A DNA stretch of 61,803 nucleotides, counting the filler, from Candidatus Woesearchaeota archaeon (GTDB taxonomy: Archaea; Nanobdellota; Nanobdellia; Woesearchaeales; B72-G16): the NCBI GenBank assembly GCA_003650545.1. It is 4 parts of 4 records of this genome, joined end to end, with 100 filler letters (N's around TTAATTAATTAA, not from the genome) between each part and the next. Parts side by side here need not be neighbours in the genome. Positions count along the whole stretch, not along the records: positions 1 to 16,736 come from QMQO01000030.1; 3 more parts are not named here. One strand, 5' to 3'. The translations under genes were made by a program, and so were the position numbers. Shown here piece after piece: positions 1-28,439 of the stretch. The notes below the pieces were generated by a model. The model worked only from the letters and a program-made list of their open reading frames with translations, did no database searches and was not told the DNA's origin. Each line of letters begins with the position of its first letter. Positions within the stretch are counted from its first letter, which is position 1.

Positions 1-318
1 GAAATCAATGCCTTAAGCAGTTTACAGTCAGACATTGCCAACCGCTTTGATCAGAAGTTTGGCTCTGAAACCTTCTCCAATGGCAAGACCTTGACTGGCT
101 TCCTGGATGAAGTTGATGCCTTAATAGATTTACAGTCTAACATTGTCAACCGCATTACCCAGAAGTTCGATATGCAGACCGATGATAATGGTACTCCCGA
201 AGATACCTCGGATGATACTTGGTATTCGAACATCACTTTCTCCAACGGTAAGACCTACAAGGATTTCTTGGCTGATGTAGGAGCTTTAGTTGAGCTAGAG
301 CAGCAAATTATTACAGCT
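1..318 (+). repeat. ~35-aa helical protein repeat in the giant protein
   Basis: ALSSLQSDIANRFDQKF..TFSNGKTLTGFL / ALIDLQSNIVNRITQKF..TFSNGKTYKDFL / ALVELEQQI. Confidence 0.75.
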
Positions 319-3300
319 TATCTTGATTTTGCAGAAGAAGCGCTGGGTAAACCGATTAGCGGTTATCAGATTTCATTCTCTGATACTAATAAAAATGAAG
401 TTTGGGATGAAGGCGAAGAGCCGGTGATTTATTTAGTTCATGATGAAGCCTGGCAGCAGGGTGAACAATGGAGCCAGGCTACTTCGATTAATCAGGATGG
501 TTATATTAGTTGGAGCAGAGAAGAGACAGTATACGGCACAGTTGTAACCGGCAAGATTTATAACGACAGCGGTGAATATCAGGGCAAGCAAGAACTCTTC
601 TATTTAGGAGGCCAGCTTTTAGGTTATACTATTGAATCTGCCGATGGTTTAACCCGTACCCGTTACGATAGTGAAGGTAATGCCGAGTTAACCGTAAGAA
701 CAACAGAAGATGGCTCTCAAGAATTTACCTATTGGCAGACAGAAATAATAGAAGTTGATTTTATCGGAGCGGTTGTAGTGCAGACAGGTAAAGTTTATAA
801 AGACGGCGAATTCCAGGGTATTCAGGAATTTTATTATCGAGCTGGCGAGGATCAACCCTATGGTTACACCATTGAATCCGCAGACGGTTTAAGCCGCACT
901 TATTATGACGCTGATAATAATCCTGTGAGTACTGTGAATGAACTTGCTGATGGCTCTCAGCAGATGATTTCATGGATGTCTACGGAAATAATGAATAGTG
1001 CAGAATTAGGCCAATATTTAGTCCAGACCGGCAGGGTCAGGATAAACGGCCAGGACCAAGGGGTTCAGCAGTTCTTTTACAAAATTGAAAATAATGAGTT
1101 AATACCGGTTGAGGCCCCGGAAGTAGAACCCCAGGTAAAATCCGGTTCTGAGCCAACTGGTGTATGGGGTTGGATGTGTAGGAACATTGGCCGGCCGGTT
1201 AAGAACCACTGGCAAGGTATAGTAGGAGCAGTAGAGATTGTTGTTGGGGTAGTACTTTGCGTTACTGGCGTGGGTGCACCTATAGGTGCAGCTATGATTC
1301 TTAATGGGCTATGGATGATCGCCGGAGAAATTCAAAAATCCATGCCAGATTCTGGTTGGGCTAACAACAAATTCGCCAGACTCTTATTATATGGTGACCC
1401 GAATAATCCGCAATTATGGGAAACAGCCTTAATGGCGATTCCTATCCCCGGGGTGGGCAAACTTGCGCATATAGTTTTGAAACCAGTGCTTTCTGCGGCT
1501 GCTAGAGTAGCCATTAAACCGTTAATCGCAGTAGGCGCAAAAGCAGTTGTGGGATTGGTAAAGGTTGCTGTTCCGGCAATTGCTAAAGCAGTAGCGAAAC
1601 CAATACTCTCCGGAATTACCAAGGTCGCAGTTAAACCAGTAGCTTCTTTAGGCAGTAAATTAATCGCAAGCGTAATCAAACCGGCGGTTTCTACAATAGC
1701 TAAGGTAACTGTTAATCCGGTTACCAGATTCAGCTCTAACGTTATATCAAAATATATTACTCCGGTAGCAAGTAAAATAGCAGTTTCCAGGCCTATTACA
1801 ATGCTATCCAGTATTAGCACAAGGGTTACCTCTACGCAGCTACCTAAGACAGCATTGAGCCTTGGTTGGAAAGGAACTGTAGGTGCAGTTAATTTTAGTC
1901 TTAGAAAGGGGCTTCCGGTTTTAACAGTCGGCCCGATGGGTACAGCCGCCCTTATGGATGCCAAAAACATCGAATTTGATTTAGAAGGAAATGGCCCTTG
2001 GGCGCTCTGGCAGGCAATCGGTGCAGCGCAATGGGCTTCTGTAGCCGAATGGTTCCACACCACCTTTACCCACAATCAGGAGAAAGCGGGTTATTATAAT
2101 TTTATGCGCCAGGTCGCCAGTCAACAACAGGCAGAGATTTTTGCTAACTGGAGAGGCGCAGTCGACGTTCCGGTACTTTCTCAGATACTTCAGATAGGTA
2201 TCGGCGGATTAGAGGCTTTAACCGGATTTGCGCAATTCCCGGCTTCTTATTTACATCATATTGCAAATTACGGAGTTGTAAGAGGAACTTTAGCTATGTC
2301 GGTAGCAGTATTAGGTTATTTTGCCAGTGTTGCCGATATGCTTTTACATACTTTTGAGTCTTTGCCTCAAGGGACAGTTAATGCCGATGAGGGTATATTC
2401 TATCAGGGCTGGTTTATGGATCATACCGTAAGAAAAGTTTTTGGAGAGAGCGCCTGGCAATACTTAAATCCCGAGGGCTATTCAGTTTTACCTAATAAAG
2501 AATATAGAGGTTTATGGGAATTTTTACCTAATGCTGCCCTGCTGCTTGTTCCGCACATTGAAGCAGGTAGGGCGAGGGCAGAGCAGCGCGCAAAACAGCA
2601 GAGCGGCCCTGTTAATCCGATTGATTCTACAATGCGCTTTGAAACCAGAGGAAGATTAGAGCAGGTAGTTGCAGGCGTTAATAGTGTTTTACTTGCTCCG
2701 GTGCATTTATTTACTGCCTTAATAAATCAGCCTTTAAAGATACTGGAAGCCTTAGGATATAAAACAAAAGGATTGTCTTTTCGCGAAGGATTAAAGGATG
2801 CATTTAGTGCTGCTCGCCTGATACAGGATTTCGTACCTATAGTTGGCAGGGAAATGGCTGATGAATATGCTAAAGAGATATACAGGCTTTTACAGGGCAC
2901 AACAGAGATACGCAAGGCTTATGAGATTTTAGGTTTAGATTCCAATCGTACTTATACTGATAAAGAAGTAAGAGATGCATATACAAGGCTTGCGCGTCAA
3001 TATCATCCTGATAAGGGCGGAAGCGTCGAGAAAATGGTAGAGATCAACAAAGTTTTTGAGTTAATAAAAACAGCAGAAGTCAGGCAGATGTATAATAGCG
3101 GCTTAGGGATTAATAGGTTAAACATACGCCAAACCTTAGATGATGCAAAGAACAGGATTACAGATTTCTTTGTTAATCTGTTCAGGTTCGGTAAAAAGCA
3201 AAGTGCCGCCGGTGTAGTATTGTATAATAGCGCAAATGGCTCAAGAACCAACACTGCAACAGTAGACAATCGAGGAACAGAGAATTTAAATATTAAGATA

Positions 3301-6300
3301 GAAAACGCTGGAACAGAAGTAGCTAGAATAAATAACGAGGCCAGAGAAGCTCAGGTCGCAATCCGCCAGCAAGTAGGAGATGTTAGCAGAACCCAACCTA
3401 AAGAAATTATCGTTATTCCGGATATACACGCCCAAGAAGCTAAATTAGAACAAATTTTAGTAGATGCTGGAGTAGTAACAATAGAAGAAGGCAGATGGGT
3501 AGTTACTCCTAGCCTTTTAAGTGGAGAGAAAATAGTTGTAATGCTTGGCGACCTTATTCATGGCGAACGCGCCTACCCTGGGGAGGAGCCTCAGATTGCC
3601 CTCCTAAGAAAAGTTATGGCTCTTGAGAAAGATGCTAACGGAAACTTAATAGTAATTAAAGGTAATCATGAGGAAGCAGAATTAAAGAGGGTAGAATTAA
3701 AGCGTACAGCCATAAGCAAGAGGGCAGGAGGGATTAATATTCATCAAGGGATTGCTCCGGAGGGAGAATATAGATTAGCTGGAGATATAAAGACTTGGAT
3801 CTCTGGATTACCTGAATCTTATCAAATAGACGGATTAGAATTTGCTCATGCTGGCCCTTTTGCAGAAGACCGGCTTTGGGATAGAGGATGGTTTAATAAT
3901 GAAGAGGGAGTCAGAAGAGTTTTTGCAGAAAGAGGAATAAATTTTGGAGTTTACGGACATACACCTGGTGTTGAGCTAGGCATGGTTGGGAATCGCGATC
4001 AAATTAGGCTAGCCGTAGGTAATCAAGCAGCAGTACTTGATATAAATAGATTTGTTACAGGATACGGTAAGTTTATCCTTGAATCTAACCAATGGATATT
4101 CAAAGAGGTTATTTTAGGACAAGGCGAACGCTCATTAACTAGAATTAATGCCAGAAATTCTTTACCAAGCCGAGCGGGAAACAAAGCAGAAGCCGTAGAA
4201 GTTCAACCAGAAGTTCCCCAATCAAGTGTAGTAGATAATAATAGCCTGAATATAGAACCGGTAGCCGTTCCAGAAGTTTTAGATAATTCAGAGGCAGTTA
4301 ATCCTCAAGAAGCAAATATAGGTTCTGTTGGCATCAGGGCGCCTCCGGTTTCAAGTGTTGAAAATTCTCCTGCCGCAGAAAGTTCCCTTCAGCCATCCTT
4401 ATTTGATAATGATCTAGATTTCAGCGCAACCTTACCCCGGTTTGATTATCAGCAGCCCATAGCTTCATCCGAAGTTTCAGAAAGTTCTAACCTGAATGGC
4501 GTTCCTCAAACGATTTTAGATGGTATAAATACCTTAATAAATAATCCAGAAACAGCCATTTCGCTATTTATCACTTCTACGCTAGAGTCATTCTTACGCC
4601 AGCAAGGAGTATCTGCAGAAGAGATTGTTAAATTAACTCCTCAGCAAGCTTGGGCAAAAGCTGCAGAAATTGTTAAAGGAGCTCAAGGAGTAGCAGAGCC
4701 GAAGGCAGAAACCTCAGCTGCGCAAACAGAGCCGAGCCAGTTAACTCTGCCGCTTTTTGTGGGGACCTCAAAAGCAGTAGATTTTGAGGCTAATCCTTCA
4801 GCTGCAGGGTTAGTTTCCCGCGCTTTAAGTTATGAAAGATACCTCGCCAATCAATTCTATGGCAATAGCGATACCTCAGTAATTGAACCAGGTATACTTG
4901 CAAAAGATTTAAATATTAATTGGCAGCAGAGAATTGCTTCTAATCCCAGGCTAAGCCGCCTTACTGATTTAATCAGAGATACCTTAGGAAAGAGGCATTA
5001 TAACCCCGGTCAGATTGCTGTTGTCTATGATCTAGTAGGCGAGCATAAACTTTCGCAGGAGGTATTAGGGCACAGGTTATCCGGAGGTAAGACTGAGGCT
5101 TACCTGATTGCGATTCTATTCAGTGCCCAGGAAAAAGGCAAGGGCATTTACGAGGTAATCGTACCTAGAGAACACAATATTACTAGCGTACTGCAGCAGA
5201 AAGCAGCGGGATTAATGCTGGAAAATCCTGATATTTTGGTCAGGGTCTTAACCAGTCCGGAAGAAGGCCTTAAGATTGACGCACAAGGACAGAAGTTATA
5301 TAACCCCTTAAAAGACGTGGGATCCGGCGCAACCGCAGAAATCTTAAGCTCTCAGGCCTTATCGCAGAATCCAAAAATAGAAATACATTTCTTAGATTAT
5401 AAAGCTGCCTTACACCGCGCAAGTGAAGTCACCCATGAAAGAGGCGGCAAAGAAGATATAGAGGCGATTACGAATGCGACAGTAGATGATCCTACAGCAA
5501 TGTATCCTCAGCCTGCCTTAGAGTTAGCTGAAAGCCATTATTACGAGTCAATGGTAGAGAAAGATGCTTCTATGGCTGCGGCATTACATCGCGCCACAGA
5601 GGCTATGGAGGGTATCTATAGGCGTTTAGAAGAGGCTTACAAAAACGGCAGCATTAAGTTAATTAACCCGGTAGACCCAGAATTAAATAAGCCCAATCCC
5701 GGCTTTTACCTTGTCGATAAGGATAATTCATCTCAATTCGTAATCGGAAAGATTGCTGAAGAATTCTTAGGAAATTCTGATTTAACAGTCGTAAGAGAGC
5801 ACCTTGAGAAGAAATTGAATTTACAAGGAGAAGATTTATTTAAAGCCTTAACCAATGCCTGGGCCCAAGCAGCTTACGGGCTTAAAGCAGGAAGAGAATA
5901 TACAAACTTGTTCTATGAATTAGCCAGGCCAGGAACTGACGTAGAAGCAGTTAAAGAATCTTTTAAAGGTATACCTTATAATATGAACGATCTTCAAGGA
6001 GAAAGAGAAGAAGGCACTTTTAACGGAGACCGCCTGATTAGCGCAATATTGGCAGTAAAGACTGTTTTGGAGGCACGGGAAAAAGGAATTGAAGTTTCCG
6101 CAGAACAGGCTGCTGAGGGCTTCATTAATAGCATATTCCATGAAACCCTTGAGTCTACTTCTTATGCTGATGTGTTTGGAAAAGGTAAAGGCGCAATCAG
6201 CCTTAAAAAGACCACCTTATTTTCAGGAACAACTGAACGAGACCTGCCCGCATATAAAGTTCAGAAATACCCTGTATCATTAATAACAAAAGAGCCGCTC

Positions 6301-9300
6301 TTAGAACTAGGTAAGGATTTAGATATTGTAGTGGTGAATACAGCTGAAGATCCTCTGGCTTTAGTCAAGGCAGTAGAGAGGTTATCCCGCCAGACTAATG
6401 CAGACCATGTTTTTATCACTAGTAAAGATGCAGAGAATTTAGATTTAGTCAGCAACCAATTAGATTCTAAGGTAGTAGGCAGCGTCAGGGGTGCTGACCG
6501 CCAGCAGGCTTTAAGTCAGATGGAAGAGTTGGCAGCGAGCGTAGGCGCAGGCAAGTCCGGGATCAGGACTATCCAAAAAGAAATTACCGGCAGTAACTTT
6601 GCTGCCCAGACTTTACAAAACCAGGGTCAGACCGCAAAGATATTTGAAACCAACCTCTTTGGTTTAACAGAGTTAACCCAGAGAGGCGGCCGCATTGATA
6701 AGACAAACAGATTACCTGCTCCCGAAGGAGAAACCCCGGTGACATTAGTAGTGGATATTGCCACAGACGGCGGATTAACCATACAGCAGAGAGAATGGTT
6801 AAAAATTCTGACTCCCGAACAGCAGAGAACAGCGATATTCGATATCTTAATGCAACTGGATGTCTGGGAGGCTTTACGCAGTACTGAGAATGCCACGCGC
6901 TCTATGACTAAAAACGTAAAAATACGCGCTGCAGTAAGGCCGAATCAAGAAGCTGTGGCAGAACTGATTAATAGATTTAAAGAAGCAAGCGAAAGAAATG
7001 CTAGCGCTCCTTTGAAAGTTGAGCAGCCAAGAGTTACAGCAGAGACACCTGCCACGGTAGAAGGCTTAATAAATAAATTTTCTCTTAGCCAAGAAGCAGA
7101 AGGATTTTTAAGGAATCCTGAATATGGTTTATCCACTGGAGAAAACTTAACTACCTTGGGTAAATTCATGGCTGAGAAAGTGTTGGCCTTGACCCGGATA
7201 GAAGGGGTTCGCAGTGCTTTACTCAAGATGGGATTATTACCCCAGGCAGAAGTTGTTTCACCTATAGAAGTTGACTTGCAGGCAGCCTTGGCGACACAGG
7301 AGGCTTTTGGCATAGTAAGGGCAGCAGTGGAAGCAGGTATGTATATAAATAATGCTGTTGATTTAGTGGTAAATATAGCTAAGCTGATTGAGGCAGATAC
7401 CCAAGGAATAATCAATACTCCTGCCTTAGCTGAATTAAAAGATTTGCAGCTTCAGATGCGCCAGGATCCTTTAGTAGCCCTGCCCGGCTTTATTTTAAAT
7501 AAAATCAATCCGGATAGTAGCGAAACCAGAGAGGCTTTAGAAGCAGTTATTAATCCCATAAATAAGGCAAAAGATAAAGCAGAATCAATAGAAAATAAAA
7601 TAAAAGGATTTTTCTATAGCCATCCTAGTTTAGTTACGTCTTACATGAATGTAGAGAAGAGACTTAAAAACGCAGATTCTTATAATTCACCTGAACAATT
7701 AAATTCTGTTCCCGCCTTGAATAATCTTGTAAATAACCCCAGCTTACAACGCTTACAGGAGTCTACTTATTCCATCTGGAAGAAAATTAAGGCTGTAGCA
7801 CCGGAATTATTTAATCCAAAAGTTATCTTGCATCTTCCGCAGATTGCCTATTATGGCCTTAAAGTATATTCTGCGCAAAAAGCAGGAGAAAAGGCCCAGA
7901 TTAACGCCGCAGGAACAGCCGAACTTGGCAGACTCGCTGGTTTTGAAAGGCCTTTTGAATTCAGCAGGGTTTTCGGTTTAAGTGATGGGGCCATTGAAAT
8001 CTATAATAAATTAAGCGATCAGAGAGAAATAAATGCGTTAAAAGTAGAACCCGCGATTTTAAATAAAGTAGGGCTTTTTGAGCTGGAGAGCTTGGCCGGC
8101 GATCAGAGTGAGCTTCATAATAAGCTTTTTGAATTCCTTAAATACAAGGCCAACTTATCTGCAGAGGCTTTTAGACTTATATTAACTATTGAGAGTATCC
8201 TTGAAGTTGTAAGGTACGTAGCAATGCTTGGGCTTATTAAGCAATTGGGCGGCAAGGAGCAAGCCAAAGGATTCGATCAGCTTATTGAGAATATCCAGGA
8301 TAATATTAACTATATAAGCGAGAACTTACCTGATTGGGCAGATAATCCTAAGTCTTACATCGGTATGCAGGAAATCACAGATATAGCTACGGCTTTTGAG
8401 GTAGAAGAGGATGTAGTTTATTCGCTGGTTCTTGGCTTGACCAACAATGCCCAGACAATGGCAAGAATTAATACAAATTATAATTATTGGCAACCGCGCC
8501 TAGAGTTAATGAGAAGGGCAGGAGAGCAGATTTCTGATAGCACTTTTGATGTGAGAAATCTTGCCAGTTTTGATATGCGCGGTAGCAGTACAGGCTTGAA
8601 AGATACTTATCACCGGGCAGTTGCAGAGTTAATAGTTAGAGATTTGCTGCCTCAGGAATTAGAGCTATTCGTTAATGGCCAGACAACAGAAGCTATTGAT
8701 ACTAAGATCGCTTCTGCCTTGGATGTTGGCCTAAACAATAATCTTTACGAGCAGATTAGCGTAACGGATATCAAGGCCATCGTTACTGGAATCAAAGCAG
8801 CGCAGGAAAGATACGAAACAAAAATTAATGCCGCTATAGAGGGAATTCAGGATGAGATTGAATCCAAACAGCAGCGTTTGGCAGCTATTAAGAATCCCAG
8901 CGTTGACTCTAGAAACGATTATAATAGATTGACCGAATTAAGCGAAGATTATTTAGAGAGAGAAGAATTAAAGAGCGGGATCGCCAAATTAGAAAAAGCC
9001 CTTACTTATGCTGAAGAGATTGCTGATGATCAAGATTTAACTTTAGCAGAGAAGCTCGGCTATATTAATTTAACCGCAAGCGATGATGTCCTGGTGCCGT
9101 ATAGTGCAGTAATTCGGGCTACCAGGAGTACGGTTGGGACGAGTGAGTTTGCTAATATTTTGGAATATGAATTAACTCAACCGAGCAGTAAAACAGGCGT
9201 AACAGAAGTATTAGTCATCCCTGTAAGTTTAAAAGAAATTGTATTGTCTGTTAGAGAATCTATAATGGCGAATATTGAAGCAGATCAGGACGTTGAGCTC

Positions 9301-12300
9301 CTGATTGATCGCGCACTGGTAAGAGCTATGTCCAGAATTGCCGGTGAAGGATTAGCTAGCAGGATTCAAGGATTATTTGCCCAAATAGATTGGGATATCG
9401 AAGTTACCTATGCTAACTCCAGTGAAGAAGCTGTTAGTGTAGACGTATTTGCGGAAATGATCGCCAATGGTCATGCCGAGAATATTATCAAAGCTGACTT
9501 AGTTATACCGGTTGACCAGAAGAGCAAAGATTTGATTGGCGAAGTAGCTGCGAATTTGGTTTTAGCAACAGCTGGCGATAGAATAGATGCTTCCGGATTT
9601 GTTCCTATAGAGCAGGCTATATCTGTCAAAGTACAGGGGCAAGAAGGTAATAACCAGGCAGCTAATAAATATATCCGTGTTCGACTTTATGGGCCAAAGA
9701 ACCCGCAAGTAAATTTACCAACCAACGATATGAATCAGGTTTTAAGCATAATTACCCTTATCCAAAATGGCATTGGTGCAATTTGGGGCGCAAGAGGCGG
9801 ACCTTCGGGTACATTCTCAGCAAGCGCGACCCAGGCGCAGGTCGCTAGCTTGCTATTGGTAGAAATATTCAGAGCGCTAAATGAAGTTATAAGAGAAACA
9901 AAAGAAATAAATCCCACCGTTCCTACCGAATCACAAACCAACCCCAATCAAATAAACCAAAAAACCAAAGTTATATTGGAAAACTGCTTAGTCATAGCCT
10001 TAGCTTCTAAATATCCGGAATTAGATTTGACAAGCCCAGAGCGGAATAAGGAAAGATGGGCAGAGGTTATTGCCATAGCTATCAATGGTAATACCGAAGA
10101 GCGAGACGGAAAAACCGCATTCATCTTAACCGAAACATTATTAGAAGCAATTAATGACATTGTAACTAACCTTGGCCATTACCAACCATTACAATTATTT
10201 AGCGGTAAAGATGAAAATGGCAACGCCTGCTATGTATTGGCAGAGAGTGAAAACGATGAGAATCGCATAGTAATCACTGAGAATGCACTCCTCTACCATG
10301 CGCAGCTGAAGGCACAGCAAGTGGTTACTTCCTTAGTGCCGGTTGATTGGGCAGTTGCGCCGCTGTTGATGGTCGCCGGACTGCCTGGGATTGTTAAGGC
10401 AGAAGAAAGCCTCAGCGCGGCTGTCAAAGAAGAACAGATAGCCAGGGTTACAAGGTCTGCTAGGGAGGTTATGGGGGCTATAGAAAGATCATCAGAAAGC
10501 AGCCAATTTAATATAAAAGGCATTATTAAATACTTAAGAGGAATAAAGTATAGCGTGCTCGAAAACCATAATCACCTGGCCTCGATTGACCTTCGGCAGT
10601 TACCCATTGAAGTTACTTTTGATTTAGGCAATTTAATTAGACTAAGCGAAAATGCGATCAAGGTTGTATTAGCCCATGAGTCCGCGGAGGTCTTCTATAG
10701 AACTTGGTGGGCAGCAGTTAATCATCTAAGGCACAACTTAAACTTAATAAACGAAGAAGAATACATAACTTTAAGCAAAACCCGTCACAATATAGTAGAC
10801 CTCCTGGGTATGATTTGGGCAAAAGAAGCTGGTTGCGATGTCTATGCGGGCCGTAAGGGAGCTACCAGCTTAAATGAAATCAGATACACAGCGCAAGGAA
10901 ATCGTAAACCCAAGGATACCGTTGAATTCACAGAAAATGAAGCAGAAATTATTATTCAGGCATTAAGCAGGAATAATGAGGCTGCACTTGAGGAACTCAG
11001 AGCATTATTGGCGCAGAAGACCACGGCCTTTAAGGCCCAGCTTCTTCAGGTAATCACTACGCGCAGCGAACTAAAGAAATTTGCCTGGTTAGATCAACCT
11101 TGGGTTAATTTATATGAAGTAGTAATGCCTGCCCCGCTTTCAAAATTAAAAGTACCTATTAATAAACGATTAGCCCGCCTCTTCGGCGTAAAATTAGAAA
11201 ACGCTGGTACTGATACCGGAATTGCTACTATTTCCGATGTTGATCTTTCACCTGTTAATTATGGCACAGAAAACTATACAGTAAATTATACTGAAGAAGA
11301 AGGTCTTAATGTATCCGTAGCAAATAGCGGCGAAGTTACCAGATCAAGCACAGATGCAGTAGCTGTAGATTTCAGTTGGGTAGAAGCCAATGCTAGCGAC
11401 CAAAAACCGATTTGGATAGCTTTAGATAAGAAGAATATCGCAGAAGGCATAATTAAGCTTGGCAGGCAAGTCGGCTTAAAAGTCATATTTGCCGGCGGCA
11501 CAGCGCGCAGAATGCTCTGGGGCCAGAATCCTATAACAAATTTTGCGGACAAGGAGACAGATGTAGATATTATGATTCAGATCATAGGCAATAAACCGGT
11601 TACTGCCTCTGAGTTAAAATCTATGGTAGATGCCTTTGGAGCTAAAATTAAAGAAAATTACCTTGGCCTGGTCATTGATATAATGAATTACGATGAGAAT
11701 TCTATGAAGGGATATTTGCATGAGGGTTACGCATTATTTAACGAAAAATCACAGGCAGCTACTATTAACCAGACACTAATTACTATAGAAGAAGGCGGGT
11801 GGGTAGTCTGGGATGAAAAAGGCGGCGCATATATTCAGGATGCGCGCAATAATATTCTGCGTTTAGCGCCAAGATCAGGCACAAACGGCGAACTTCTCAT
11901 TTCTTCTGTATTGGCATTTGTTCGCCTGATGGCTGAATTTCCGCAGAAACAGATTGATGCCGATTCATTAGCCCAGATAAGAGGCTTTGTAGAAAATTGG
12001 GATTATGAAAGTGATTCGGCTTATCGCATAAATACTTCCTTACCTGATCAGCGTTTCTTAAAAATATATAAATACGCACAAAAGCCTTCTGAGGTAAATA
12101 ACTTATTAAAGCAGGTAGGGAGAGAAAGCAAGAATCTCTTTACAATATACAGCAAGGTGCTTGATTTGGAACGCATTGCCAGTGTTGCTGCGCAATGGAA
12201 GGGTGGATCAGATTTTAGAGTAGCGGTCATATCAGGTCTTTCCTTGCAAGAGGATCAACCTATCCAGGCGAATATGGTTACAGTAAACCAGGATGATAGC

Positions 12301-15300
12301 TTAACCGCGGAAGTATTATTTACTTGCGAAAATCAGGGCACTGAAAGCCAGGAATGCGCTGATGAGGAAGAATCAGGAGTCAAAGATGAAGAAGCGGAAT
12401 CCGAAGGTAATAAGGATAACAAAAATAAATCTATAACTAAGAATAAGCCTGAAAATATCGAAGCGCTAGAAAAGATTGGTCTTAGTGGTAGCTTAGACGG
12501 AAAGATTATTACTATTAATGGAAAGAGCAGAAAATTATACCTCTGGCTGGCAGAGCGCGGGATATTTCATTCAAAAGAATTAGAAGAGCTAGAGGGAGAG
12601 CTTGATAGATTTTGGGGTTTGGTTAAACGGGATGACCGCAGTTACAATCTTGAGTGGGTTGAGCAGTATATCGTAGAACAAGCCAAAAAGATTGGTGAAG
12701 ATGATAGCGAAATTAGAAGGCGCATAAGTAGTATTGAGAAAAAAGCAGAAGAAGCAGTGAGAAACAAAGCAGGAATGGCAGCTCTTAAGATTAAGCATCC
12801 CCGGGTATATAAAGCAAAGATTAAGAGATGGAAGAAGTTTTATTTAATTGGTTCCAAGCCGTCTGACAAGAAATTAGTTAGCGAAGAATCTCTTCTTATT
12901 TGGGCAAAGAAGGTTGAGTTATACGGCTATCTAAACTTGGGAGATTTACTCATGCCGGTAAATGAGGATGGCAATATTATTAGAGAATTAATTGAATGGA
13001 TACCAATGGGGCAAGTAGCGCCTGCTGAATATCATTCTGCTAAAAAAGTGCCCCTTTATCAGCTTGTTAGCGTTCTTGCCAATACTCAGATAAAGCTATT
13101 CACATATTTAGGAATTGTTTTACCTGCGGCATTAGCGCTTGGCACGGTTTTACCGTTTAGCGCCACAGTGCTCGGCGCAGCTAAGAATCAGGGCATTGCA
13201 GAAGCAATTGTATTAATTTCTGAACAGGTAGAGAGGTTAGAGGAAGTTTATTTTGAGATCGGCGCCAATGAATACGAAGATATTTTACTATTATACGTTC
13301 AGCCCGGTGTATTAGTGAACCAGGGCGGCGCAGCAGTAATAAGATTAGCAGATGGGAGGGTCGCCGTAGCAGTAGAAAAAGATAAGGCTTATCTCTTACG
13401 CCATGAATTAGCCGAATACGCTTATTTTAAAGATAACCATATCAGCAAAGCTGATCAAAAAGTTGCAGGATGGGCGCATAATTTCGCACTCAGCGTGCAA
13501 GATCAGGTTATTATTCCTGATCGGTACACAGGAGAATTTGAGCAGACAGCCTTGCCCGTTACTGTTATGAGCATAAAAGAAGACGGTGTAGCCTCAGAAG
13601 ATATCACGGATAAGGAGAGATTAATTCAATTAGCCAGGATTGCCGCATTCGAATTACCTAACACCATGGAATTTGCAAAACGTCCTGCAAACAGCAGAAC
13701 GCTTTCTATTAATTTATCGAAATCATTTTATTCCGGAGTCTTATCATTCAAAACAGACGTTGATAATAATAAATTTGGTATTATTAGTGCAGCACAGACC
13801 GCTGCGGTTGTTTATTTAGGAGAAGGCAAGGAGGAAGTAGTTTTAATTGCCGGCGGAATCTGGGGTTGTTCATCAGTTGCACTTATCGGAGAAAAAGACA
13901 AAGAGGTAGTTATAGCTTTAGCCCACAATATGCCTTATGAAGTCAAGCAGGTAAAGGTAGCAGATGTTAAAGGAACCACAATTAAAGAAGCCTTGTTCTT
14001 GCCGCAAACAAGAGCAGCCATAAAGGAATTGCGCGCAGAAGGCGTGGTTAATCTTAGGGCTTTTGTACACGGTTATTCAGTTGCTCTTTACATGCAAGAG
14101 AGAAATATTACCCTTAAAGTTTTAGAGCAGGATTTGGGTATTCCTGTTGAGGGTTTTGATAGCAAAGACGGATATAGAAACGGATATGATATAGAGAATT
14201 TACCGCCCACTATGGTGGTAGCTAATAGAAAGGGTGTAGCGGTATTTTATCCAGGCATACGGCACAGTGAAAAAGTAAGAGTGCACCTTTGGAGAGCCGA
14301 AAGGTCAGGCGAAGAGAAAGACCAAAGAGAAGAAGATAGCAAGAAAGAAAAAGATAGCAGTCAAGGTAAGGGCGAAAAGCAGAATAAGGCAACCCAAGAA
14401 AAAGCAGCAAAACCTGCTTTACCTGAAGATAAGAAAGAAAATGCCGGACTAAGTACTAATTTAACCAGCGCAATAAAAAATAAGCTTTTATTAAGTAAGA
14501 TATTTAACAGAACTATACATTATGTTTCCGGGTTAAAGGTAGACTTAAAATATAAATTGCAGGCAGCTTTTGCAGCCGCCTCAAGAATCGTATTGCTTTT
14601 ACCTGATATTCTTGGCCCGCCCCTAGCAGCATTTAGACAATTTATTAAATTCCTTATTGCTTACTTAGTTCCGCTGAAGACAGGCCCACCGCAAGAATTA
14701 TCAATAAAATCTACAAATAATTTCAATCCTTTCTTTATAACCGTCTTAATAAATAAATTTAATAATAAGCCGTCACTTCCAACTATAAACAATTTACTTA
14801 ACCGTGGCCGGTTAGTAAAAGTTGTGGTGGCGGCTTTTGTATCTGTTAGCCTCGGCATAGCTTATATGTCTGTTTCACCTTCCGTGGCTGGTGGGGGAGA
14901 GGCATTATTCCAAGCTGCCGGGGCTATAAATTATACGCCGCAGAATGTCCTAATATCTACCGTGGCAGGTGTTTTAGGGCTGGCGGCAATTGTTGTATTC
15001 AGAGGCCACAGGGCCTTGGGCCTCCCCAAGATTGACCCCTCTGTGGCTTCTGATACAACTAATAAGATTAGGAGATTAACAGATAGAATTTACAGATTAT
15101 TAACGCAGCTGCAATTCCTACTTACCGTGGCAGGTATGGGAGTAGCAGCAATTGTTGTATCCAGAGCCCGCAGAGCCCCGGGCCTCCCCGGGAATGACCC
15201 CTCTGCGGCCTCTGATACAACTATCGGATTTATTTATTTCTCTAATTTTGAAGAAGAAGTTGTCCAACCGCAATCTCTTGGTACGAAAAATTCCTCTGCG

Positions 15301-16736
15301 GCCCTTGATGCAGCTGGAGGCAATACGAATGCGGTCGAGGTTATAGAGCAGCATAATTGGGCGTATTTGAGCTGGTGGAAAGGATATCTCGCAGGCAGAA
15401 TAGCTTTCGGTTCTATTTTAATCAATATAGACTACCATGCCGATTTATTCCCCGGATGGTTTAGGTTGACTCCCAAGGACGGCTCCGCCTGGGCAAAATT
15501 AAAGGATGCCGAAAAATTAGCCTTAATAAAAGAATACGCCGGCAAGATAGATTGCGCTCGATATGTCGGCCCGGCTGTTTATGACGGACTTTTCGATGAA
15601 ATATACTGGGTTGTGCCGGGATGGGTCAGAGACAGCAAAGGCAGAGGCTATGTAGATTATAGCAGCGGCCACGGCAGATATTATCTGGCCAGGGTTTCGG
15701 CGGTTAACAGAGAGGACCCCGAAGACACTATTTCCTTATTCTATTTCGGCCCAGGCAAACAGCTGCTTTTAGAGGGCTCAGAGTATCATTTGGGAGATAA
15801 GACATACCTCATCTCCGCATTGCAGGAGAATCAGATAAGGCAGATAGCTATTCATGCGGTTACGCCGGAAGAGCTCCCTGATTTCAAAGATGAGAAATGT
15901 GCCAGGGTTTTAACCTGGGATGTGGATAGCGTCCCCGGAGCAGGCAGCTATGAATTTATCAAGGATACAATAGAGATTTTAAGACAGAGGAGCGTTAACC
16001 CGGCTGACATAAGCATTGCCCAATCCCTGGGAATCAATCCCGAAGGAAGCATACCCCAGGAGAAGATAGCAGAGATTACCAAGAGCTTAGTCTCCAATCT
16101 CGCCTCCGCTGCTTCGCAGAGAGGCAGTGTTAATGGTTTAGGCTCAATAGTTGCCGGCGTGGTTTCCCTGGTTGCCGGCTTTGCCGCCTGGAAGCTGATT
16201 CCGGCAGCCATCCTGGCGAACATCTCCGGAGCCGGATTAGGCCTGATAGGCCTATTCTTCATTGCTCAGGCAATGGCAATTATTCATACCTTTATAAAGC
16301 AGGGCGGAATCAGGGGTTCTCCTTGGGCTACTTCTATTGCTCAGGCAGAAAGAAATCAAATCAGACAACACCCCGCATTCAAATATTTACCTAAGCTCTC
16401 CCAGGTTTCCATCCTCAGGCATGAACAGGCCCACCTTGAAGGCAAAGGCGAAATAAGAGCATATCTAACTCAGGCGTTATATCTGGTCCACGACATAGTC
16501 AAATCGATTATGTTCAAGCCGCAATCTCCTATTGTGCCTGCACGCCGAACTGCCGGATCCAACCGGGGTGGTTCGGCGTTACGGCACGCAGGCGTGGCAG
16601 GAAGAGAAGTGCTAGAAATTGCACAAAAGGGCCTCGGGTTTGAAGGAGTCCGTGGCCTCCTTAATAGGCTTGGGGCCCTTAGTGTAATGCTCAAAGGAGG
16701 TGTAGTAAGATGGGTAAGATTAATTTCCAAGATTTA
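1..16736 (+). CDS. Giant multidomain protein, partial at both ends (>5578 aa), probably secreted or membrane-associated
   Basis: Frame 1 has no stop from nt 1 (EINALSSLQSDIANRF...) to the spacer at 16737. The TTG start at 91 in the ORF track falls inside a repeat and is not a real start. Multiple recognisable domains and TM segments are present. Confidence 0.95.
541..1090 (+). repeat. ~80-aa beta-rich protein repeat, about 2.3 copies
   Basis: TGKIY..QGKQELFY..GYTIESADGLTRTRYD..DGSQ / TGKVY..QGIQEFYY..GYTIESADGLSRTYYD..DGSQ / TGRVR..QGVQQFFY; units start about 547, 784 and 1027. Confidence 0.85.
2917..3070 (+). other. J-domain (DnaJ-like) within the giant protein
   Basis: AYEILGL...EVRDAYTRLARQYHPDKGG...INKVFELI; HPD at 3004-3012. 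Confidence 0.92.
3406..4110 (+). other. Calcineurin-like/PPP metallophosphatase domain within the giant protein
   Basis: Ordered motifs DIH (3421), GDLIHG, GNHE (3661), HAG, LWDR, GHT (3955). Confidence 0.9.
4996..6720 (+). other. SecA-like SF2 ATPase domain within the giant protein
   Basis: SecA-ordered motifs: RHYNPGQ, SGGKT (5080), ATVDD (Walker B-like, 5485), ISAILAVK (~LHQAIEAKE), TLESTSYADVF (~TLASITFQNYF), FSGT (6220), QRGGR (6679, ~QLRGR). Confidence 0.75.
11479..11940 (+). other. Class II CCA-adding/poly(A) polymerase-like nucleotidyltransferase domain
   Basis: FAGGTARRMLWG...DVDI, ATINQ (~DFTINA), QDARNNILR, LAFVRLMAEF (~LRAxRFAA). Confidence 0.7.
13840..14100 (+). other. CheD/CNF1/YfiH-like Cys-His domain (putative deamidase)
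   Basis: GGIWGCSSVALIG...IALAHNMP, with Cys at 13867 and His at 13924; spacing resembles CheD LGSCVxV...MAHIMLP. Confidence 0.5.
14992..15059. repeat. 68-nt palindromic hairpin element, copy 1 (inside the CDS)
   Basis: GTTGTAT-T-CAGAGGCCACAGGG-C-CTTGGG-CCTC-CCCAAG-ATTGACCC-CTCTGTGGCTTCTG-ATACAAC; long stem plus inner 6-bp stem. Confidence 0.85.
15154..15221. repeat. 68-nt palindromic hairpin element, copy 2 (inside the CDS, 162 nt after copy 1)
   Basis: 57/68 identical to copy 1, with differences mostly compensatory; ~30 nt of upstream flank is also duplicated (ACCGTGGCAGGT at 14959 and 15124). Confidence 0.85.
15331..16030 (+). other. UPF0489-like (arginase/deacetylase-fold) metal-binding domain
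   Basis: VIEQHNWAYLSW...LINIDYHADL...IDCARYV...IYWV...LTWDVD...ISIAQS. Confidence 0.6.
16408..16465 (+). other. Zincin metallopeptidase-like motif
   Basis: ILRHEQAHLEGKGEIRAY: canonical HExxH (16420-16434) plus a downstream Glu. Confidence 0.6.
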
Positions 16737-16836
16737 NNNNNNNNNNNNNNNNNNNNNNNNNNNNNNNNNNNNNNNNNNNNTTAATTAATTAANNNNNNNN
16801 NNNNNNNNNNNNNNNNNNNNNNNNNNNNNNNNNNNN
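16737..16836. other. Artificial contig spacer
   Basis: N44-TTAATTAATTAA-N44 (stops in all six frames). Confidence 0.99.
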
Positions 16837-16971
16837 GCGCTTTGATGGCATATAAGCCTTTGCATCGGACTTGGGAAGGGTTATCACCTCTATTCTCGGA
16901 TCATTGTCAGGATCAAAATCTGCTTTTTTGCTCTTCCGAGACTTGCGCTTACTAGACTTGCGTTTCTTCAT
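16837..16971 (-). CDS. Small basic hypothetical protein, 3' truncated
   Basis: ATG at 16971 preceded by AGGAGGTG RBS; runs into the spacer. Confidence 0.6.
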
Positions 16972-16985
16972 GTCTTCTTCACCTC

Positions 16986-17927
16986 CTACTCAATCAGGAA
17001 TTCTGTAAGACCTAACTTTTCGGCCATTCTTCTCATCTTTTTTATAGCTCTTAGTTCAACTATCCTGACCCATTCCCTGCTCACAGGCGGATCGAACATC
17101 TTGCCTATTTCATCGAGCGTATAAATCTTATCTTGTTTGCCTTTTCTCAGTGCCAGCACCATTAACTCTTTCGGGTCCAATGTATCGGCCATTTCTTTCA
17201 GCCGCTTCTTGAGATCTTTATGCAGCGTATAATCCATAGGATTTAGTGCGTTTTTGTCTTCAACAGCATCTGCAACCAAAACAGGACTTTCCGAATCATA
17301 TGAAACAACATCATCAAGCGATACGATGGTGAAGTCAGCAGTCAGCAGTCCAATTGCCTTCTCTTTACTGATTTCCATTGCTTCTGCTATTTCTTCATAT
17401 GTTGCTTCTCTTGAAAGCTGAAGCCGAAGATCATTTTGAATGTATCTTGCAAAGTTGACATGTTCGGCAACATGTTCGGGAAGCCGAACAAGTTTTTCGC
17501 GTTTTATGATCAGCCTTCTGATAAAACTGCGAATGTGCCATGTAGCATACGTAGAAAATCTGAAGTTCTTCCGATAGTCGAATTTTTCGGCTGCCCTTAT
17601 TAGACCGAGATTGCCGCTCTGTATAAGATCAGCATATTCAAGATTTGTGTGATTACGAATGTATTTTTTGGCTATATTTACGACAAGTTTGAGATTTCTC
17701 TCTACAAGAACATTTCTCAGACTGACTATTTCTTTTTCAAGCTCTGCAGTCTTCTGCTCAATTTCCCCGGCCATTTCCGGTGAATTTCTGGCGCTTTCCT
17801 CTAATTCCCTTATTTCCTCTTTTATTTCATATATCCGTTTTGAATACTCCTTTTCCTCATCCGGACTCATAAGAGGAATATTTCTTATGGATTCAAGGTA
17901 TGCTTCAAGCGAAGAACTACTCTGCAT
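16986..17927 (-). CDS. RNA polymerase sigma-70 factor (RpoD/RpoS-like, lacking region 1.1)
   Basis: Region 1.2 [11 protein letters not shown]; region 2 [41 protein letters not shown]; region 4 TLDEIG..VSREWVR. Confidence 0.95.
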
Positions 17928-17941
17928 AGTTTGTGCTCCTA

Positions 17942-18262
17942 TTATACTTCTGCGTGATCTTCTATTCTGTACTTGGGAAAAGGAATACCCAGAATGCTTC
18001 CCTTTTCCAGTACGATTCTTGCGTAGCCATAGGTTCTCTTTAATACATACAGAAGAATACTCACGGTCACACAGACGAATCCTGCTGCTATCATGCTGGT
18101 TACTGCCCCGCCGAGGAAGATATATGTTGCAATCGTTGTAATTAAATCAGTAAAAAGCGGATGCCCCAGCATCAGTCGTCTGAGTAACGGGCGTATCTTC
18201 ATAATCAGAAAGAAAAACGCCCCGAAAGTCAGGGCGCCGAGAGTTAATGCTGTAACTATCAT
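17942..18262 (-). CDS. Small membrane protein (~3 TM)
   Basis: Hydrophobic helices; translationally coupled to the upstream ORF. Confidence 0.7.
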
Positions 18263-18702
18263 TTTAGATCTCCTCCTTCCTCTTTCTCCATAAGGACTGC
18301 TTCTATCATCCCCAGGGGAAAAGTGTACATCCTGTGAAACTGGTCTGCCACAGCAGATATTACATCTGATGGAGGCAACTTGCCTCCGAGTATCCCGGAA
18401 AGAGCAACCGATGCAGCAACTATGAGCGAATATACTTCTGCATCAATAAGTCTAGCGGCGAACGGGATTATGCCCTTGTTTTCTATTCTTGATGCTCTCC
18501 CTATTAATTCTTTTACAGTATCACTTCCTACTGATTTCCCAAGATAGTAAAGAGTTTCATCCAGTTCTTCCTCAAGTGCAGATCTGAGTGCCACAAGATC
18601 GTCCGCGGCAAGCAGACTGAGCTTTCTGTAAAGAGCAGGATCTTTGTCCTTTACTATTTCGGCATATATATTCAGATCGGGATCGTGCTCAAACAGTCTC
18701 AT
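18259..18702 (-). CDS. Hypothetical protein
   Basis: ORF in a tightly packed minus-strand operon; GAGGTG RBS. Confidence 0.7.
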   Translation of the reverse strand: MRLFEHDPDLNIYAEIVKDKDPALYRKLSLLAADDLVALRSALEEELDETLYYLGKSVGSDTVKELIGRASRIENKGIIPFAARLIDAEVYSLIVAASVALSGILGGKLPPSDVISAVADQFHRMYTFPLGMIEAVLMEKEEGGDLK

Positions 18703-19018
18703 TTTTCACCTCTTCTTCAGATGTCGCGTTGCTATCAACATTGAAGTCTGTTTCTATCGTTTCTCTGTCCTTTTCGTGATAACCCTCATCTATAGCTCTG
18801 ATTATCCGCTTAATTGGACTATTATCGCTGGAAGCTGTTCCTTTGTAGGCAGCCACTACCTCTTTAGTGAAATCAACTACATCTCTCCACCTTCTTCCAG
18901 CACCTCTTGCTATATGTTCATATGACTCAAGCTGTGTCACTTTTTTCATAAGTCTCCGCCCCCTTCCTGCATTGGCTGCTATTTCTATTGCTGCTGATCT
19001 AAATTTCTTGTTCGGCAT
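18689..19018 (-). CDS. Hypothetical protein (start probably MPNKK)
   Basis: ATG at 19018 with GGAGG RBS; the ORF track extends it to 19084. Confidence 0.65.
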   Translation of the reverse strand: MPNKKFRSAAIEIAANAGRGRRLMKKVTQLESYEHIARGAGRRWRDVVDFTKEVVAAYKGTASSDNSPIKRIIRAIDEGYHEKDRETIETDFNVDSNATSEEEVKNETV

Positions 19019-19128
19019 TGTGTTATCCTCCCTTCTCTGTCCAAAAAAGGTAAATTTATGGACATGTTTTTGTGTTCTGTCCACAGTATGGACATGTTAA
19101 ATCGTAATAACGTTCATCCTTCCCCTGT

Positions 19129-19153
19129 AACACCCTCTCAGACGCACGAGAAT
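19129..19153. repeat. 25-bp exact intergenic repeat, copy 1
   Basis: AACACCCTCTCAGACGCACGAGAAT, identical to 29936-29960. Confidence 0.9.
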
Positions 19154-19245
19154 GCCCCAGAATCGATTTTAATTAGCGTACCCATATCTTATCCTACCTG
19201 AACCATAAAAACGCAATACAGCGCAAATTTGGAGCTCTGACGGCA

Positions 19246-19428
19246 TTATGGCAGCTCAACTATCACATAGTCGAATGCTATATTTTCGTCTGCATACTCT
19301 CTAGCTTCTTTTTCACTCTCGAAAACTGCCAGTCTCTCGTCTTCCATAACTATCGCTATATAGTCTGCAGTATTGTACTCCACTATTATATACATAATTA
19401 TTTTCCTCCTTACTTTATACTTTGCCAA
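19246..19428 (-). CDS. Small hypothetical protein
   Basis: Short ORF directly after the ligase; the true start may be the internal MYIIV with an AGGAGG RBS. Confidence 0.55.
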   Translation of the reverse strand: MAKYKVRRKIIMYIIVEYNTADYIAIVMEDERLAVFESEKEAREYADENIAFDYVIVELP

Positions 19429-21091: not shown

Positions 21092-21125
21092 TTGTGATTG
21101 GTACCTCCTTGGTTTTTCCTTCTCC

Positions 21126-28436: not shown

Positions 28437-28439
28437 AGA

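Follow-up and report, generated by a model that had tools for sequence, protein, structure and literature searches.

A truncated giant open reading frame with a J domain and a divergent, probably SecA-like ATPase module between predicted membrane segments

Introduction

Most of the giant genes described by West-Roberts et al. (bioRxiv 10.1101/2023.11.21.568195) encode many transmembrane (TM) helices together with a divergent SecA_DEAD/PPXD region that lacks scaffold and wing, and the authors propose that the giant protein is itself exported and is cleaved by embedded C39 and S8 peptidases. Giants with SecA_DEAD/PPXD include 'Archaeovorin' and its kin in Omnitrophota, with some in Actinobacteriota (10.1101/2023.11.21.568195; 10.64898/2026.06.07.730766). 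The survey of Nielsen and Lui (10.64898/2026.06.07.730766) recognizes a 'multi-enzyme' class and a PF07517 architecture cluster, with 80% sequence-singleton clusters, and reports that long open reading frames (ORFs) in metagenome-assembled genomes (MAGs) are often truncated at contig ends. Here we analyse an ORF that fills the first contig of a 61,803-nucleotide stretch of DNA, hereafter the window, taken from an assembly of a Candidatus Woesearchaeota archaeon (GCA_003650545.1).

Two other groups of known systems bear on this ORF. Polyvalent proteins commonly contain Pol-beta nucleotidyltransferases and superfamily 2 (SF2) ATPases (Iyer, Burroughs, Anand, de Souza and Aravind 2017, PMC5512222). 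The arrest peptides of the secM-secA and RAPP types sit upstream of Sec/YidC genes (PMC7897499, PMC10987492, PMC10951233), and RAPP-like motifs reportedly stall ribosomes and are strongly excluded from bacterial proteomes (PMC12992588). An initial annotation of the window likened the ORF product to the giants of Omnitrophota, an apt comparison, and read it as a possible self-translocating, self-processing delivery system. The reading that we favour on balance is that the contig carries an internal fragment, at least 5578 residues long, of a giant membrane-tethered multi-enzyme protein of the 'giant gene' kind with a SecA-like module.

Results

An open frame from the first base to the last

The window consists of four unlinked contigs (1-16736, 16837-32852, 32953-47367 and 47468-61803) separated by identical artificial joiners with stops in all six frames, N44-TTAATTAATTAA-N44, at 16737-16836, 32853-32952 and 47368-47467. 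Across bases 1-16736, frame +1 contains no stop in 5578 codons, where ~361 would be expected from base composition (ln P of finding none = -373), and the five other frames of this contig contain 200-517 stops each. GC content peaks at codon position 1 in 9/9 blocks of ~2 kb, and tetranucleotide use in each of seven overlapping 4-kb windows correlates with that of the whole contig at 0.94-0.97. This periodicity and compositional uniformity indicate that frame +1 is coding and give no sign of a chimeric join, so that the chimeric assembly raised as a possibility in the initial annotation finds no support in composition. Tandem DNA repeats were not found in the contig, and scanning the entire window for tRNAs and Rfam families returned no matches.

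Because the contig is ORF throughout, the gene is truncated at both ends, and the figure of more than 5578 residues is a lower bound imposed by the assembly; the protein collection entry for the giant ORF is likewise 5578 residues from a single contig of 16,736 nt. The single long frame claimed earlier is therefore real but is cut on both sides and has no natural end. The apparent stop at 16786-16788 falls inside the artificial joiner and was rejected, and contigs 2-4 were rejected as genomic context since they are not physically linked to contig 1 and nothing past 16836 is its neighbourhood. Neither the size of the gene nor its surroundings can be read from a stretch of unlinked contigs.

Close to the contig end, at 16618-16712, a stable hairpin (z -2.7 relative to shuffles) is followed by AAAGGAGGTG-N7-ATG (16696-16712) in frame +3, in which no stop occurs from 16683 onwards to the end of the contig. 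Contig 1 has only one other GGAGG+ATG pattern. The site may mark where the next gene begins, in which case the giant ORF would end shortly past the contig, or may be a chance occurrence.

Recognized domains between membrane clusters

The most readily identified part of the protein is a J domain, which matched Pfam DnaJ with E 2.9e-12 and 47 bits (cut-off 27.8), covering 62 of the 63 positions of the profile. All 55 PDB sequence matches at E <= 1 are J-domain proteins, and NCBIfam DnaJ and DjlA models match as well. The zinc-finger and C-terminal domains of DnaJ are absent, and full-length DnaJ models of NCBIfam score far below their cut-offs. With its HPD kept, the J domain looks functional by sequence. 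It is followed by a calcineurin-like or PPP-like metallophosphatase (Pfam Metallophos, E 2.1e-7, 32 bits against a cut-off of 21.5), which was also matched by the PHROG of NinI-like (lambda/NinI-like) Ser/Thr phosphatases (E 1.2e-4) and by the phosphatase part of the NCBIfam Pnkp model (E 1.2e-4, 20 bits against a cut-off of 750). The PPP signature reads GDxHG, GDxVDRG and GNHE, and is kept here in part, as PDIHA, GDLIHGE and GNHE. Near the other end of the fragment, a UPF0489 or arginase-deacetylase-like domain matched Pfam PF12640 at 27.8 bits against a cut-off of 27 in a 400-residue window, and at 25 bits in a long piece, over 127 of 167 positions. The same domain matched the NCBIfam FlmR/OhkR peptide arginase model (E 1.5e-7, 31 bits against a cut-off of 350, positions 4-92 of 287) and the peptide arginase 8brp_A in PDB (E 0.0013 over 94 residues). 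All three domains had been named in the initial annotation; the J domain and the phosphatase are borne out by these matches, and the UPF0489-like domain is probable.

No domain could be assigned to about 60% of the fragment. One such region, residues ~2300-3530, gave no family at meaningful E in Pfam, NCBIfam, PHROGs or PADLOC and no PDB match. Over the protein as a whole, none of 27 windows matched in PADLOC; apart from the J domain and the phosphatase, PHROGs and PADLOC revealed no family connected with toxins, defence or phages; and Pfam, searched in 400-residue windows, found neither a peptidase family nor a nucleic-acid-binding domain.

TM-like segments, taken as Kyte-Doolittle windows of at least 1.6, form clusters at residues 403-441, 764-908, 4366-4391, 4936-5056 and 5377-5433, in keeping with the TM segments claimed previously. 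By contrast, the charged linkers that were said to separate the domains came down to one strongly charged 40-residue window, at residue 4771. Residues 909-4365 contain a single weak hydrophobic segment and nothing above 1.83 on the 19-residue scale (KD19). The clusters near the two ends of the fragment thus enclose a TM-poor stretch of 3450 residues that holds the J domain, the PPP-like phosphatase and a two-lobed SF2 ATPase. The placement of the J domain, the ATPase and nucleotide-using domains within this stretch, which is without a strong TM segment, argues for a cytoplasmic but membrane-tethered location.

Repeats accompany the membrane clusters. Of three tandem ~77-residue repeats upstream of the first hairpin, residues 179-250 and 256-331 share 55% identity (E 1e-17) and residues 205-280 and 285-361 share 49% (E 4e-19). 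A degenerate K/P/V/A-rich repeat after the hairpin may be an amphipathic segment at the membrane surface. Towards the C-terminal end, a unit composed of a TM segment, basic residues and GLPxxDPSxASDTT is duplicated (residues 4988-5020 and 5043-5074; 70% identity over 33 residues, E 3e-8).

The central ATPase is likely a divergent relative of SecA

The module that follows the phosphatase is an SF2 ATPase, and its specific kinship with SecA is likely. Its motifs are GKRHYNPGQ, the Walker A sequence SGGKTEAY (residues 1694-1701), VDDPTAMYPQP (residues 1828-1838) and, further along, GTFNGDRLISAILAVK, HETLESTSYADVF, FSGTTERD, ITGSNFA and LTQRGGRIDK. An alignment of the module with its homologues keeps a G-x-x-x-[YF]-x-x-GQI stretch, a GGKT or GTGKT Walker A, a DD or DE Walker B that precedes a Pro-containing strand, GTHxGDxxxSxxLxxK, SYxDxL...GTP, GSN and LTQxxGR; SGGKTEAY and VDD are conserved among these homologues.

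We compared this seven-sequence alignment by hhalign with SecA profiles of increasing depth, the deepest of which comprised 13 sequences (E. coli K-12 secA and 12 SecA, SecA2 or short SecA-like stretches from plasmids). The match improved from P 0.013-0.015 over 96 columns with one SecA sequence to P 0.0032 over 129 columns with nine and P 0.0012 over 161 columns with all 13, placing residues 1999-2192 on residues 340-506 of E. coli SecA. The score of this alignment was 40.3, compared with 16.3 for the reversed alignment and 18.2 +/- 3.7 for 70 block shuffles, whose maximum was 30.7, and none of the 70 reached the real score. The aligned pairs are GTFNGDRLISAI with GRRWSDGLHQAV, ETLESTSYADVF with QTLASITFQNYF, FSGTTERD with MTGTADTE and ITKEP with PTNRP, and the alignment continues into the second nucleotide-binding domain (NBD2). 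A search restricted to the N-terminal part placed LGKRHYNPGQIA...SGGKTEAY on FGMRHFDVQ...TGEGKT (SecA 50-119) with a score of 19.1, matched by 7 of 229 shuffles, and one restricted to Walker B placed ITNATVDDPTAMYP-QPALELAES on the corresponding SecA stretch with a score of 16.7, matched by 8 of 392 shuffles. The three aligned pieces, Walker A, Walker B and the 340-506 stretch, occur in SecA order. Some 170 residues between the Walker B stretch (residue 1828) and the GLHQ-like stretch (residue 2005) are partly conserved among the homologues, are not alignable to the SecA PPXD and have pLDDT values below 50. As for the SecA scaffold, wing and C-terminal tail, nothing in the module aligns past SecA residue 506, and conservation among the homologues stops ~60 residues past the LTQxxGR stretch.

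Language-model features and predicted fold point in the same direction. In the ESM Atlas, where a score below 0.9 is a lead only, the top cluster for residues 1630-2330 was SecA DEAD-like/PPXD (PF07517 in 92% and PF01043 in 34% of its members; score 0.87, 174 of 256 features shared), and every other named match was an SF2 helicase at 0.84-0.86. AlphaFold2 returned a confident alpha/beta domain, the second RecA-like domain, at module residues ~545-725 (pLDDT ~80; block means of 63-87 except for two of 46 and 51). Foldseek against PDB gave three matches at E <= 0.001, of which two, at ranks 2 and 3, are SecA (2fsg_B and 4ys0). Among the matches listed, seven rows are SecA or SecA2, four of them with the highest query TM-score of 0.19, and the recognized names are otherwise SF2-type helicases or remodelers, 9cac_A being described only as a TIP60 complex lobe. 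In profile, language-model features and fold alike, the closest relatives of this ATPase therefore appear to be SecA proteins.

A number of results weigh against this kinship and against the wider reading of the protein. Across 27 windows of 400 residues, Pfam PF07517 (SecA_DEAD), PF01043 (SecA_PP_bind) and PF21090 (P-loop_SecA) gave no match at E <= 1, long pieces gave no SecA or helicase family at E <= 0.1 in Pfam, and no NCBIfam SecA model matches; published giant-gene SecA domains, unlike this module, were detected with Pfam (10.1101/2023.11.21.568195). The module went undetected in a PDB sequence search, and a PDB search with a six-sequence module profile retrieved no SecA at E <= 10, only three designed proteins at E >= 0.19. 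Scores between the module and SecA families were at noise level in hmmsearch, and the hhalign probability was 19%. The expected pairing of motifs V and VI with SecA was not recovered in the restricted alignments, and the Walker B of the giant protein is DD, not DE. The AlphaFold2 model, built from a six-row alignment, has a mean pLDDT of 46.9, with 519 of 841 residues below 50, and the Foldseek scores of many DEAD-box and Snf2 helicases are close to those of SecA. Because of this poor model and these near-equal scores, a generic SF2 helicase is a possible identity for the module. As to the protein as a whole, its topology was deduced from hydropathy only, and the domains characteristic of the Omnitrophota types (sugar-active, methyltransferase, NUDIX, C39, S8 and dockerin) were all missing from the Pfam and NCBIfam matches. 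The SecA-like ATPase of the initial annotation accordingly stands on profile-profile, Atlas and fold comparisons, and is invisible to searches of Pfam, NCBIfam and PDB sequences.

Relatives share the module alone

A HMMER scan of 1.84 billion cluster representatives with residues 1560-2400 returned only six relatives (E 1.5e-33 to 4e-7), of 185, 295, 544, 852, 1100 and 7503 residues, whose similarity to the giant protein is restricted to residues ~1594-2309. This restriction marks the module as a conserved, portable unit. The only long relative (P0005, 7503 residues) shares just the ATPase module. It has five HExxH motifs and at least 20 TM-like segments and, by eye, four copies of a junction motif (TLSANIFTP, a TM segment and basic residues), a long run of helix-turn-helix-like repeats and putative M48-like, M50-like and radical-SAM-like parts. 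The theme common to the two proteins is the combination of a SecA-like module with numerous TM segments and dispersed HExxH motifs, but their domain order differs, so the comparison of domain order proposed earlier leaves only the ATPase module in common.

Outside the module the protein is nearly solitary. A word-indexed search for giant homologues of residues 401-5400 among proteins of 3067-9762 residues found only the query itself, and no shorter relatives of residues 3550-4770 were found in the word-indexed collection. A 5000-residue query against one genome for each of 185,579 species hit a single locus, in a Nitrosopumilales MAG, with 26% identity in the J domain; this was rejected as a relative since the similarity is confined to that domain. 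Searches by tblastn with both halves of the protein against 50,697 phage and 72,556 plasmid records gave J-domain matches only (3 and 5 records, respectively), and none with the second half.

Domain candidates that could not be verified

Three of the eight domains named in the initial annotation could not be verified. In place of three zincin-like motifs, the fragment has one canonical HExxH, HEQAH at residues 5474-5478, the other two being HESAE and HELAE, which have no second His; no peptidase family in Pfam matched any of them. The candidate Pol-beta or class II nucleotidyltransferase has GG at residues 3832-3833 and DVD at residues 3854-3856, a spacing of 20 residues where ~12 is usual from GG to DxD in the class II family. 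In the ESM Atlas, 24 of 30 matches to residues 3740-4110 were unnamed clusters (best score 0.94, commonest phylum Saccharimonadota), and NTP_transf_2, PolyA_pol and Gad2 clusters scored 0.91-0.92 with 129-138 of 256 features, values that are compatible with chance or distant kinship according to the Atlas guide. The region had no match in Pfam (including PF01743), NCBIfam, PDB or plasmids, and the CCA/PAP assignment is reduced to this Atlas lead. The proposed CheD/CNF1-like domain is likewise reduced to a Cys/His motif, with no match in Pfam (including PF03975) and, at E <= 10, none in either PDB or plasmids. AlphaFold2 with a single sequence gave a mean pLDDT of 32.6 for residues 3760-4770, and no residue reached 70.

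Candidate pausing motifs

The only RAPP of the giant protein lies within GIRAPP, ahead of the ATPase module, and there is one RAPG. From composition, 0.037 RAPP, 0.07 RAPG and 0.005 GIRAxP would be expected. The C-terminal end of E. coli SecM reads ...GIRAGPQRLT. None of the four homologues scanned has RAPP, RAGP or RAPG upstream of the module; P0004, P0006 and P0008 have sequence upstream of it, and P0005 was covered from its first residue. We regard GIRAPP as an intriguing single observation in one sequence, and not as evidence of coupling.

Table 1. Features of the first contig and of the joiner that follows it, in window coordinates
Feature	Position	Strand	Residues and remarks
Giant ORF fragment	1..16736	+	frame +1, 5578 codons, fills whole contig, open at both ends
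Three tandem ~77-residue repeats	535..1083	+	179-361; rich in predicted strand-type sequence; no Pfam match
N-terminal membrane region	1207..2724	+	hydrophobic hairpin 403-441; weaker segments 764-782 and 889-908
Degenerate ~11-residue K/P/V/A-rich repeat	1438..1860	+	~480-620; units such as AxKPxxSxxxK, after first TM hairpin, by eye; assigned to no family
J domain	2917..3096	+	973-1032; intact HPD 1002-1004 (YHPDKGG 1001-1007)
Calcineurin-like/PPP-like metallophosphatase	3406..3966	+	1136-1322; PDIHA, GDLIHGE, GNHE
GIRAPP	4330..4347	+	1444-1449; low-complexity linker, ~215 residues before ATPase module
SF2 ATPase module, divergent, probably SecA-like	4780..6891	+	~1594-2297
~1200-residue region without recognizable domain	6892..10600	+	~2300-3530; mostly helical by composition
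HESAE	10675..10689	+	3559-3563; no second His
Candidate Pol-beta/class II nucleotidyltransferase-like region	11218..12330	+	3740-4110; lead only
Strong TM-like segment	13096..13173	+	4366-4391; hydropathy
HELAE	13402..13416	+	4468-4472; no second His
WGCSSVAL...LAHNMP Cys/His motif	13861..13935	+	4621-4645; compared with CheD/CNF1 in the initial annotation
Three TM-like segments	14806..15222	+	4936-5056; hydropathy
RAPG	15172..15183	+	5058-5061; directly after second copy of duplicated TM unit
UPF0489/arginase-deacetylase-like domain	15334..15726	+	5112-5242; contains NIDYHADL; between distal TM clusters
C-terminal TM cluster	16129..16440	+	5377-5433; followed by HEQAH (5474-5478)
Artificial contig joiner N44-TTAATTAATTAA-N44	16737..16836	.	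ORF's apparent stop lies within it

The other contigs of the window

Tetranucleotide use correlates between contigs at 0.65-0.82 only. Contig 2 (16837-32852) carries on its minus strand a dense set of replication and repair genes, bacterial in type and very divergent: a sigma-70 factor (best NCBIfam model MzaA/RpoD, far below cut-offs), a DnaN-like clamp, two adjacent RecA paralogues, a family B polymerase (PolB) with 23-27% identity to phage PolBs, a PolX thumb fragment, a non-homologous end-joining-type ATP ligase, a family 4 uracil-DNA glycosylase, Nfo, a metallophosphatase and an FGE-sulfatase fragment. Its gene content suggests a phage, a mobile element or a reduced-genome bacterium. Contig 3 has a glycosyltransferase/epimerase cluster with a sulfatase, inside which an 862-residue ORF (39111-41699, minus strand) has no Pfam or NCBIfam match. 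On contig 4 are an ORC1/Cdc6-type replication initiator (55754-56839; TIGR02928, 185.9 bits against a cut-off of 181.3) and a full-length serpin (48173-49432; Pfam E 6.5e-128). Since these archaeal-type genes of contig 4 stand beside the bacterial-type contig 2, the record may mix organisms.

Discussion

How the favoured arrangement would work

In the membrane-tethered multi-enzyme protein that we favour, the J domain, ATPase and phosphatase would face the cytoplasm of the producing cell, held there by the flanking TM clusters; a cytoplasmic middle follows from the need of a J domain to meet DnaK and of an ATPase for ATP. The J domain would recruit DnaK to the chain, be it nascent or bound to the membrane. 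The SecA-like module would consist of NBD1 with an inserted region and NBD2, without scaffold, wing or C-tail. Without the elements through which canonical SecA docks to SecY, it may be kept at the membrane by the TM helices of its own chain, and might spend ATP on threading or inserting the extracytoplasmic and TM parts of that chain, as has been proposed for the SecA_DEAD domains of giant genes.

Other readings of the contig

In the delivery chain put forward in the initial annotation, a mobile element or a predatory cell would encode a self-translocating and self-processing polyprotein, akin to polyvalent proteins or polymorphic toxins, which is exported and cut by its own zincin-like sites into separate phosphatase, nucleotidyltransferase, deamidase and arginase effectors that act on another cell, with pausing coupled to export. 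We consider this unlikely. The chain does hold several unrelated enzyme domains and a duplicated TM unit with GLPxxDPSxASDTT, and phages and plasmids do encode polyvalent proteins in which zincin-like peptidases are interspersed and Pol-beta nucleotidyltransferases occur (PMC5512222), but the phage and plasmid records searched here yielded J-domain matches only, and toxin, defence and phage families beyond the J domain and phosphatase were lacking, with no PADLOC match in any window. Self-processing could be read from the HExxH that adjoins a TM cluster and from the five HExxH and fourfold junction motif of P0005; against it, two of the three supposed zincin motifs are HExxE and no peptidase family is recognized, which leaves the claim with one canonical HExxH. 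The coupling of pausing, export and cleavage was founded on one GIRAPP and one RAPG, of the kind that bacterial proteomes reportedly exclude (RAPP-like motifs; PMC12992588), and neither is conserved in the four homologues scanned. Contig 2 resembles a phage or mobile-element replication module, yet is not physically linked to contig 1. For effectors and delivery we find no support, and the J domain together with the ATP- and NTP-using domains argues for the cytoplasm of the producer.

Alternatively, an ordinary SF2 helicase, a phosphatase of Pnkp type and a nucleotidyltransferase resembling CCA/poly(A) polymerase might together make up a membrane-tethered platform for RNA repair or modification that has no role in export. 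Most non-SecA matches in Foldseek and the Atlas are indeed RNA or DNA helicases or Cas3, the phosphatase matches the phosphatase part of Pnkp, and the Atlas gave PolyA_pol and NTP_transf_2 as leads for residues 3740-4110. The best and longest profile alignment, however, covers stretches specific to SecA (E. coli 340-395: GRRWSDGLHQAVEAKE, TLASITFQNYF and MTGTA). These stretches lie between PPXD and NBD2 and are not known from generic helicases. With SecA as the first Atlas match, a Pnkp score far under its cut-off, an unconfirmed nucleotidyltransferase and no nucleic-acid-binding domain in Pfam, we give such a platform little credence. That the contig is chimeric or mis-assembled, or that its frame is not translated as one protein, is hardly credible. 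The contig is short, comes from a fragmented assembly and ends inside the ORF on both sides, and only one contig carries the protein; but the chance of so long an open frame is e^-373, composition and codon-position GC are uniform, the recognized domains share one frame from residue 973 to residue 5242, six independent proteins share the conserved central module, and tandem DNA repeats that could mislead an assembler are absent.

More speculative, and a long shot, is a reading in which the protein would be a cis-acting secM-secA fusion, combining a membrane-targeted N-terminal region, a DnaK-recruiting J domain, the GIRAPP as a stall site and the SecA-like motor. The ribosome would pause after the anchor and resume once the upstream part is inserted, so that the chain makes its own translocation ATPase at the membrane for threading the distal TM and exposed domains; the RAPG at residue 5058 would be a second checkpoint, and the module family a new SecA-like subfamily for the self-insertion of giant chains. 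Like the secM-secA and RAPP systems, the ORF has GIRAPP (compare GIRAGP of SecM) upstream of a SecA-like ATPase and after a membrane-targeted N-terminal region. Its motif is, however, internal to the same ORF, whereas that of SecM is at the end of a small upstream ORF; moreover, the nearest TM-like segment is ~540 residues upstream of GIRAPP, and the other SecM residues (F, W and I positions) are absent.

If the module is a true relative of SecA, 'private' SecA-like motors of giant proteins would extend beyond the reach of Pfam PF07517, and Pfam-based surveys of giant genes would undercount them. The seven sequences of the module family, which include that of the 7503-residue protein, would serve as a starting alignment for finding more. 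The J domain, possibly with a RAPP-type stall site, may offer a handle on the question, posed in the giant-gene literature, of how cells make, insert and possibly cut chains of many thousand residues.

Comparison with known systems

Canonical SecA and SecA2 probably resemble the module in a Walker A preceded by G-x-R-H-[YF]-x-x-Q, in an acidic Walker B with a Pro-containing strand after it, in a lengthy insertion at the PPXD position, in GLHQ-, TLASITF- and MTGTA-like stretches and in a second RecA-like domain, with what looks like the order of SecA throughout. The module differs from canonical SecA in having no helical scaffold, wing or C-terminal tail, in the replacement of DEVD by DD, in an identity too low for detection by searches of sequences with a hidden Markov model, and in being embedded in a giant chain rather than free-standing.

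SecA-like proteins encoded on plasmids offer further points of comparison. A 2947-residue hypothetical protein (453-9296, minus strand) makes up most of the 13.8-kb Legionella geestiana plasmid NZ_CP041715.1, and like the giant protein has a SecA-like segment (residues 1142-1664; 25% identity to E. coli SecA, E 1e-32). This segment is easily recognized, however, and the protein has one TM-like region, no HExxH and no detectable similarity to ours (best BLASTP E 6.8). Four loci on alphaproteobacterial plasmids encode SecA-like proteins of ~600-670 residues, covering roughly the first 650 residues of SecA; annotated 'prepilin peptidase', 'DEAD/DEAH box helicase' or 'SecA', they are wing-less and free-standing, like the top cluster in the Atlas.

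With polyvalent proteins the ORF product shares the presence of many unrelated enzymatic domains in one polypeptide, and autoprocessing by HExxH has been proposed for them (PMC5512222). The words 'transmembrane', 'SecA' and 'DnaJ' do not occur in the accessible text of that paper, and the giant protein is rich in TM segments. No zincin family was recognized in it, the phage and plasmid records searched yielded no relatives, and none of the typical polyvalent domains (MPTase, ArdC, ParB-like, methyltransferases, ART) was found in it with Pfam and PHROGs.

The closest counterparts are the published giants. Those of Omnitrophota are likewise very long single ORFs that encode numerous TM segments and a series of unrelated enzyme domains, and in both the SecA-like ATPase is without scaffold and wing; published giants are also mostly sequence-unique and often truncated at contig ends in MAGs (10.64898/2026.06.07.730766), and in those of Actinobacteriota, Ser/Thr phosphatases are among the domains listed. 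Contig 1 differs in that its module escapes PF07517 and PF01043 and in having no glycosyltransferase, glycoside hydrolase, methyltransferase, NUDIX, C39, S8 or dockerin/TSP3 match. The published types exceed 30,000 residues, compared with the 5578 present on contig 1. Because none of the defining domains of the Archaeovorin and Dockerin types is present, the protein belongs to neither. DnaJ and J domain have no occurrence in the accessible text of 10.1101/2023.11.21.568195, nor have DnaJ, J-domain and UPF0489 in that of 10.64898/2026.06.07.730766, and a literature search found no paper that joins SecA, a giant protein and a J domain. As self-export and cleavage are already published as hypotheses (10.1101/2023.11.21.568195), the core of the initial annotation, the proposal that an embedded SecA-like ATPase serves the self-export of giant proteins, is not new. 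What appears to be new, judging from sequence comparison, is a sequence-unique giant chain that combines an unusually divergent SecA-like module with a J domain and an arginase-like domain.

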